Of a stretch of DNA of 64,000 bases, positions 50,343 through 51,326 are shown in pieces. Source of the DNA: Camelus ferus (taxonomy: Eukaryota); the NCBI RefSeq assembly GCF_009834535.1, contig NC_045696.1:32552001-32616000 (forward strand), read 5' to 3'. The notes beneath the pieces are model-generated. The model saw only the letters and a program-made list of their open reading frames with translations, was not told where the DNA came from and did no database searches. The position numbers and the translations under genes are program-made. Numbering within the stretch: the first letter of the stretch is position 1; every line of letters begins with the position of its first letter.

Positions 50343-51326
50343 GAAAATGTCAAATCGTCTGAGCAAGTATGTGGCAGATCACAGAAAGAAAAGAGGACTG
50401 TGGGAAACGAAAAGGCTTTAGTGTCTAACAGCTGAGGAGACTGATGGATGTCATTCAAACTTCTCATCTCCTTCTTCCACGTCTTTCAAATTGAGTACCT
50501 CCAAAGAACCTTTGCCCTTTGTCTCCTTTTTTCTTAGCTCATCGATTTCTCTGAAGCAGCCAGGGTCAATGAGGCACACAGTTTCTAACTGTTGATTGTA
50601 GTCTTCGATTTCTACAACCTTGATCAGAGGCTTGAGTTTCTCTTTTAGCTTCTTCTCTTCGTTCACTGGAAGAATGAACCGAAGTCTCATGTGAGCGCGT
50701 TCTATCTTCATTTTCTCCTCCAACTGCTTTATCACTTCCAAAGCCTGCTGTTTGGTACTCTTGTTGGGCTTGACTGAATAGTGGATGTCCTTCATGGCTC
50801 TCTCGATAAGGATGACGGTGTACGGCCTCTTTGTTTCAGGGTTCACACATTTGTCAGCCACGATAGTTGCAATGTCCCTAAACATCTGCTCCAGCTGTGT
50901 GTGCCGTTCTTTATCTGACACCTGAACCTCTCCTTTCGTCAAAATCTGTTTACAGATTTCAGTCTGGTCATCTGTTCCGAATGCACTGATGAGATCTTCC
51001 TTCCTTGCAACCTGACCTTTAGAAACGTTTACAAACACTGAGTGGGTCTGCAGAACTTCATCAAGGTCTTTTAACACGCCGCTCCGCCAGCCGACGACCT
51101 TGTTTTTGTAGCAGGCGATTTCGAAGCGCTTCCCGGCTCGCTTCATCCGTACCACGGCCACATTGGTTAGGCGGATCTGGTTGGTGGGGGTGAAGATTGA
51201 CATTGTGGCTGCTCACAGACCAAGGTCCAGCGAACCAAGGCAGACCTGCGCCTCCGGCCTGAGGGCCACCGGCGGCTCGATGTAATCACCCGGCGGCGCG
51301 CAGCACAGCAACGCCCGCAGACTGCC
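50343..51326 (-). pseudogene. SBDS: Processed (retrotransposed) copy of SBDS mRNA: about 120-nt GC-rich 5'UTR, full CDS, at least about 110 nt of 3'UTR; 3' boundary uncertain
   Basis: Intronless, whereas the parent gene has 5 exons. Abrupt GC-to-AT transition at 51326/51328. Sequence after the stop resembles the start of the mammalian SBDS 3'UTR as recalled (..CTGCCACATACTTGCTCAGACGATTTGACATTTTC). Confidence 0.9.
50451..51203 (-). CDS. SBDS: Ribosome maturation protein SBDS, retrocopy with an intact 250-aa ORF (retrogene or young processed pseudogene)
   Basis: [36 protein letters not shown]...[12 protein letters not shown] is the same length as human SBDS, with about 10 differences from my recall of the human protein. 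Kozak-like GCCACAATG, TGA stop, no frameshift. Confidence 0.93.

Follow-up and report, generated by a model that had tools for sequence, protein, structure and literature searches.

SBDS acts with EFL1 to release eIF6 during 60S maturation. The stretch of camel DNA analysed here (64 kb, referred to as the window) contains an intronless copy of the SBDS reading frame, and the question it raises is whether this copy is a functional retrogene or a recent processed pseudogene that has yet to be disabled.

Read on the minus strand from its ATG, the frame is free of stops and encodes a 250-aa SBDS protein that aligns to human SBDS without gaps across 250 residues (E 1e-153) and contains all three Pfam SBDS domains (PF01172, PF09377, and PF20268). 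It is one of three ATG-initiated open frames of at least 100 aa in the window, with A (a purine) at −3 and T at +4 of the start codon. Breaks in isoform records put the parental exon junctions at residues 43/44, 86/87, 153 and ~209, and the presence of an intron just behind c.258 follows from the splice variant c.258+2 (PMC6321010, in the part available); the frame of the copy crosses all four junctions, and the copy is therefore intronless. The full-length, intact, single-exon copy described in an earlier note is thus upheld, as is its camelid nature: P146, V197 and N203 are common to the copy and alpaca SBDS, and it therefore originated in the camelid line. Within the window the copy has no stop, frameshift or lost start, which leaves it outside a strict definition of a pseudogene; the term is used here for a copy that is likely unconstrained with its frame unbroken. 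Of the properties that would mark a functional retrogene, the intact frame is the only one seen. The features of the locus are collected in Table 1.

Table 1. Features of the SBDS copy and its host intron, in window coordinates.
Feature	Position	Strand	Basis
SBDS reading frame without introns (250 codons and a stop)	50451..51203	-	Seven amino-acid differences from alpaca SBDS
GC-rich stretch 5′ of the ATG, read as copied SBDS 5′ UTR (~125 nt)	51204..51328 (outer end approximate)	-	GC/CpG step
Stretch 3′ of the stop, read as truncated SBDS 3′ UTR copy (~110 nt)	50343..50450 (end approximate)	-	GC step
CpG-rich patch from SBDS exon 1	51076..51330	.	25 CpG in 255 bp, o/e 0.99, GC 0.63
CADM2 recursive splice site RS2 with 43-nt helper exon	6762..6804	+	Match to mouse Cadm2 RS2

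Similarity at the new locus is confined to the span of the mRNA, with steps in composition at ~51330 and ~50350 that locate the ends approximately. Upstream of the ATG, 51204–51330 has a GC content of 0.68 and 12 CpGs, and 51331–52000 has a GC content of 0.28 and one CpG; beyond the stop the GC content is 0.42–0.46 and then 0.22 from ~50350. Both stretches flanking the frame would be copied UTR, and the 3′ one would resemble the human SBDS 3′ UTR. The copy lies in AT-rich, CpG-poor flanks within a window of GC 0.33 and CpG o/e 0.18, in agreement with the AT-rich surroundings reported earlier. Poly(A) tails and target-site duplications are frequent, though not universal, in processed copies. 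No A-tract is present within 1 kb of the stop of the copy and no convincing direct repeat was found at its flanks (best 9/10 matches), so that the L1 machinery, the likely maker of the copy, is assigned from general knowledge of processed copies.

A splice-signal scan identified a recursive-type site on the plus strand at 6762, which resembles RS2 of mouse Cadm2 in its motif, its downstream donor at 43 nt and its upstream pyrimidine tract (supplements of PMC8797253). By this match the minus-strand SBDS copy is intronic and antisense, situated ~44 kb after RS2 in CADM2 intron 1, which agrees with the intronic antisense position claimed in the earlier note and gives the host a name. Four CADM2 coding motifs are absent from the window.

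An assembly artefact was considered and ruled out. Fourteen of the 24 sequencing runs listed, which are those with the highest shares and do not speak to fixation of the insertion, contain 95–99% of the words of 50000–51700, and nine of these (five studies) are not flagged as a possible source. Words spanning the junctions make up 5.7% of this stretch, and runs at 0.99 must therefore contain junction words.

Elsewhere in the window there are L1-like pieces at ~52000–52510 (+), 53800–54660 (−) and 58370–60230 (−), and a 259-aa open frame at 8488–9267 (−) within a repeat of ~1.7 kb, without a Pfam match and presumably the 3′ end of L1 ORF2. A short tRNA-like repeat at 18636–18706 (+; Rfam tRNA, 32 bits) and a similar, more decayed copy recognized by eye at ~42365–42440 (+) are probably a camelid tRNA-derived SINE. 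The segment at ~45240–45740, ~5 kb from the SBDS copy, is GC-richer and non-repetitive in appearance with several CpGs, and may represent either an element conserved within the intron or an ancient piece derived from a different gene.

Relative to alpaca SBDS (P0140), seven residues are changed in the copy: E44L, K67R, K162E, G183E, S199I, I208T, and I224R. The variants L44, E183 and R224 that had been singled out previously are real, and four more exist. Divergence is referred here to the alpaca parent protein and not to the camel parent, and the seven changes would lie on the copy's own branch. Six correspond to a single base change and E44L to two adjacent base changes; tandem changes of this type are a polymerase-zeta signature, and the alternative is a path via a stop codon. 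Residue E44 is presumably also the site of a disease variant, and no literature was found on SBDS E44G with K67E. At codon 44 (51072–51075) E44L yields a weak GT donor exactly at the former exon 1–2 junction.

These differences correspond to a dN of ~0.013 (0.005–0.026). With a rate of 2.2e-9 per site per year, derived from 1.1e-8 per generation and five years per generation (PMC7305198, in the part available), the copy is ~6 million years old; half that rate, our own alternative, gives ~12 million years, and the full range is 2–24. The camel-llama split is placed at ~16.3 million years in the accessible portion of PMC12337305 and the dromedary-Bactrian split at 4.4–7.3 million years in that of PMC7305198, and set against these dates the age suggests that the copy is probably Camelus-specific.

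An open frame with so few changes shows nothing about function. Seven missense events imply ~10 substitutions and 0.8–1.4 expected disabling hits, and the chance that an unselected copy stays open is 0.24–0.45 (assumed indel ratios of 0.05–0.125). In a survey of mammalian retrocopies, 33.1% bear an ORF (defined as at least 75 aa) and purifying selection predominates among those that do (bioRxiv 10.64898/2026.06.26.734816, in the part available); taken as a prior, this predominance counts against a reading of the camel copy by drift.

None of the seven changes is a CpG transition, with 36 non-synonymous CpG sites remaining in the copy. If these sites were methylated and neutral, 1.6–4.7 such transitions would be expected (5- to 15-fold mutability) and the probability of none is 0.22–0.03; outside the exon-1 part it is 0.12–0.45. 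This absence speaks weakly against drift. Retention of CpGs may reflect a patch unmethylated in the germ line, constrained codons, or chance.

The character of the changes is more informative on selection. The copy was compared with a reference set of 49 non-mammalian SBDS proteins, picked from 120 listed, and with 26 named mammalian orthologues of 250 aa together with alpaca; this second set excludes one human record of low quality, entries that are incomplete or over-length, and those labelled "like". None of the seven residues of the copy is present in the same column of the 49 non-mammals, compared with 55 of 76 distinct substitutions in the mammalian orthologues (Fisher p = 2.9e-4; the pooled orthologue substitutions are non-independent events). 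BLOSUM62 scores are negative for five of the seven versus 14/76 (p = 0.006), and the mean profile score is −5.2 for the copy and −1.5 for the orthologue changes (0/20,000 draws as low); random point mutations have a mean of −4.5, against which the copy gives P = 0.14. Highly conserved sites are changed in 3/7 cases in the copy and 10/76 in the orthologues (p = 0.07), with 57% expected at random. As a set, the amino-acid changes look like unselected random point mutation, and the encoded protein would lack function.

Three of the changes fall in narrowly restricted columns. Among the 49 non-mammals, column 183 contains only A or G, 208 only M, I, V or L, and 224 only I, V or L, and because these columns hold only small or aliphatic residues, domain III is probably less stable with G183E, I208T and I224R. 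The neighbouring I212T nearly abolishes EFL1 binding (PMC6321010, in the part available). K67R is conservative and mild and is present in two otter SBDS records; K67 contacts the 60S P-loop, and arginine retains the positive charge (available text of PMC12355251). A literature search on the dispensability of SBDS domain III returned nothing relevant, and an AlphaFold model of the copy, built on 11 aligned rows, had a mean pLDDT of 48.9, too low for statements on burial.

A separate observation concerns the mustelid SBDS records P0124, P0125, P0132, and P0167, which have 13–22 differences from the mammalian consensus, the median among the 26 orthologues being 7. Faster evolution of mustelid SBDS and annotated copies are both possible sources of this excess.

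RNA runs were used to place a bound on dN/dS. Three runs from two studies contain 0.33–0.35 of the words in the region, unplaced on parent or copy, and the simulated median share for parent mRNA alone is 0.31 at dN/dS = 1, 0.23 at 0.5 and 0.15 at 0.3. The probability of a share of at least 0.33 is 0.38 at dN/dS of 1, 0.07 at 0.5, 0.008 at 0.3 and 0.002 at 0.2, under a simulation that assumes a fully assembled parent message and zero contribution from the copy or genomic DNA, any such contribution weakening the bound. The shares are suggestive of dN/dS near 1 and disfavour values of 0.3 or below. Runs left unused comprise one with a share of 0.10 and four with 0.00.

The SBDS copy is probably, then, an ordinary young processed pseudogene, unconstrained and yet unbroken. 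A spliced SBDS mRNA would have been taken up by the L1 machinery and inserted antisense into CADM2 intron 1 some 6–12 million years ago in the Camelus lineage; the copy would since have drifted without selection on the protein, its frame probably still open only since ~10 substitutions have accrued. The earlier note had left a functional retrogene and a recent, not yet disabled processed pseudogene side by side, and of these the pseudogene is favoured, given changes that look unselected and a frame whose openness is expected by chance, and the retrogene is less so.

The best-surviving alternative, although unlikely, is a retrogene with full or partial function, driven in the reproductive tract by its own CpG-rich patch and tolerating mainly domain III changes. 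It accords with a frame that is complete from native start to native stop, with the high CpG o/e of the patch and the lack of non-synonymous CpG loss, and with the presence of only two changes in residues 1–160, one of them K67R, which keeps the charge at the P-loop contact (PMC12355251, in the part available); but the clustering of changes toward the C terminus and domain III is not significant (P = 0.15–0.17), and the changes resemble random mutation rather than tolerated variation. Two reproductive-tract RNA runs from one study contain 0.71 of the words, unplaced on the copy, which is near the 0.78 expected for a copy transcript extending into the 3′ flank (0.57 for the copied span alone), but genomic or intronic background together with parent mRNA predicts ~0.61, and these libraries assemble to ~840 Mb and were listed for their high shares. 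NCBI, UniRef and nr already contain the exact protein, but from one 122-Mb contig and without a Logan source. A fuller version is slightly more doubtful still: a Camelus-specific retrogene driven by an unmethylated exon-1 CpG patch, expressed in the male or female reproductive tract, conserved in domains I–II and remodelled in domain III as a second SBDS tuned for germ cells. A working retrogene would supply a naturally occurring variant of a protein that is encoded by a disease gene and acts in the last 60S maturation step, and a test of domain III tolerance.

Improbable, and ranking below the retrogene, is a transcribed non-coding copy in which the unmethylated exon-1 CpG patch acts as a weak promoter and yields transcripts antisense to the CADM2 intron, the protein meanwhile decaying. 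The CpG density of the patch (o/e 0.99 versus 0.18 window-wide), the absence of non-synonymous CpG transitions and the RNA share of 0.71 in one study would all follow from it, but a young copy retains most CpGs regardless, and synonymous CpGs that were lost are uncountable without the parent. Genomic background can likewise account for the RNA share, and the contigs of those runs reveal neither strand nor start.

Other Camelus records bear on the pseudogene reading and on annotation. P0106 (XP_045359746.1, C. bactrianus, 196 aa, "SBDS-like") is without residues 44–97 and P0213 (EPY79255.1, C. ferus, 199 aa, plain "SBDS") is without residues 36–86; both match the window protein exactly at every aligned residue and carry the five C-terminal changes. 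The P0106 gap starts at c.128/129 and has non-canonical ends, and the P0213 gap is GT-AG and ends at c.258, placing one end of each at a native exon junction (c.128 and c.258); the gaps are therefore not counted as disruption, and no camel shows a demonstrated disabling change, which counts against the drift reading. The two truncations were considered as proof of a broken frame and rejected, as the gap ends sit where sequence sharing between parent and copy begins or stops. The gaps are probably assembly or annotation errors arising from short-read breaks at parent/copy junctions, an origin no less likely than a lesion, although the Camelus copies may share a disabling allele within codons 44–86. 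No dromedary or alpaca version of the copy was seen among the matches listed, and a search for shorter proteins gave no named camelid record among the 120 of 159 matches listed.

The concern raised earlier that the copy could confound annotation of SBDS has proved justified, in that a C. ferus record named plainly "SBDS" (P0213) bears residues of the copy. If the pseudogene reading holds, both annotation and read mapping of camel SBDS are confounded, which could give a false appearance of rapid SBDS evolution in camels. That the derived residues instead belong to the camel parent SBDS (or that the parent was lost), the window holding a very recent or replacing copy, is highly improbable: Camelus SBDS with the ancestral residues is absent among the 374 proteins compared (15 members listed per cluster) and the C. 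ferus "SBDS" record has five of the changes and a GT-AG gap ending exactly at the start of native exon 3, but a near-identical parent predicts RNA shares of 0.46–0.57 where 0.33–0.35 is observed, the C. bactrianus protein is labelled "SBDS-like" and the ends of its gap in the window sequence are non-canonical (GT-GA or TT-AT), and none of the orthologues examined carries changes of this kind, which would here affect an essential gene present in a single copy.

Among known systems, the SBDS/Sdo1 family (PF01172, PF09377, PF20268; PDB 5an9 chain J) is matched by the camel copy in all three domains and in a gap-free length of 250 aa. The copy, which is known from sequence alone, differs in its seven substitutions unseen in 49 non-mammalian orthologues.

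Human SBDSP1 (SBDSP) is, like the camel copy, a second SBDS-derived locus able to confuse mapping. SBDSP1 is a duplicate that retains introns and whose frame is broken, whereas the camel copy is processed, open, and located in the intron of another gene. SBDSP1 donates disease alleles to SBDS by gene conversion (PMC6321010, in the part available).

The hippopotamus (XP_057573406.1 and XP_057589967.1) and sloth (XP_037680652.1) "SBDS-like" models, which are known here from annotation name and protein, also represent extra SBDS copies. These three models (P0107, P0164, and P0180, of which P0107 ends at residue 217) share 0/7 of the camel changes and so are probably independent of the camel copy.

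Publications on SBDS retrocopies, processed pseudogenes and camels were searched and no description of a camel SBDS retrocopy was found, although supplements of the mammalian retrocopy survey (bioRxiv 10.64898/2026.06.26.734816), which lay outside that search, might list it; the available part of the survey's main text mentions neither SBDS nor camels. The young ORF-bearing retrocopies of housekeeping genes in the same part of that survey resemble the camel copy in being intronless, with UTR-like ends, a housekeeping parent, an intronic antisense position, an open frame and low divergence. The camel copy differs from them in the lack of a detected poly(A) tail or target-site duplication and in a 3′ UTR apparently cut after ~110 nt. 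Having lost its introns, it is nonetheless a processed retrocopy.
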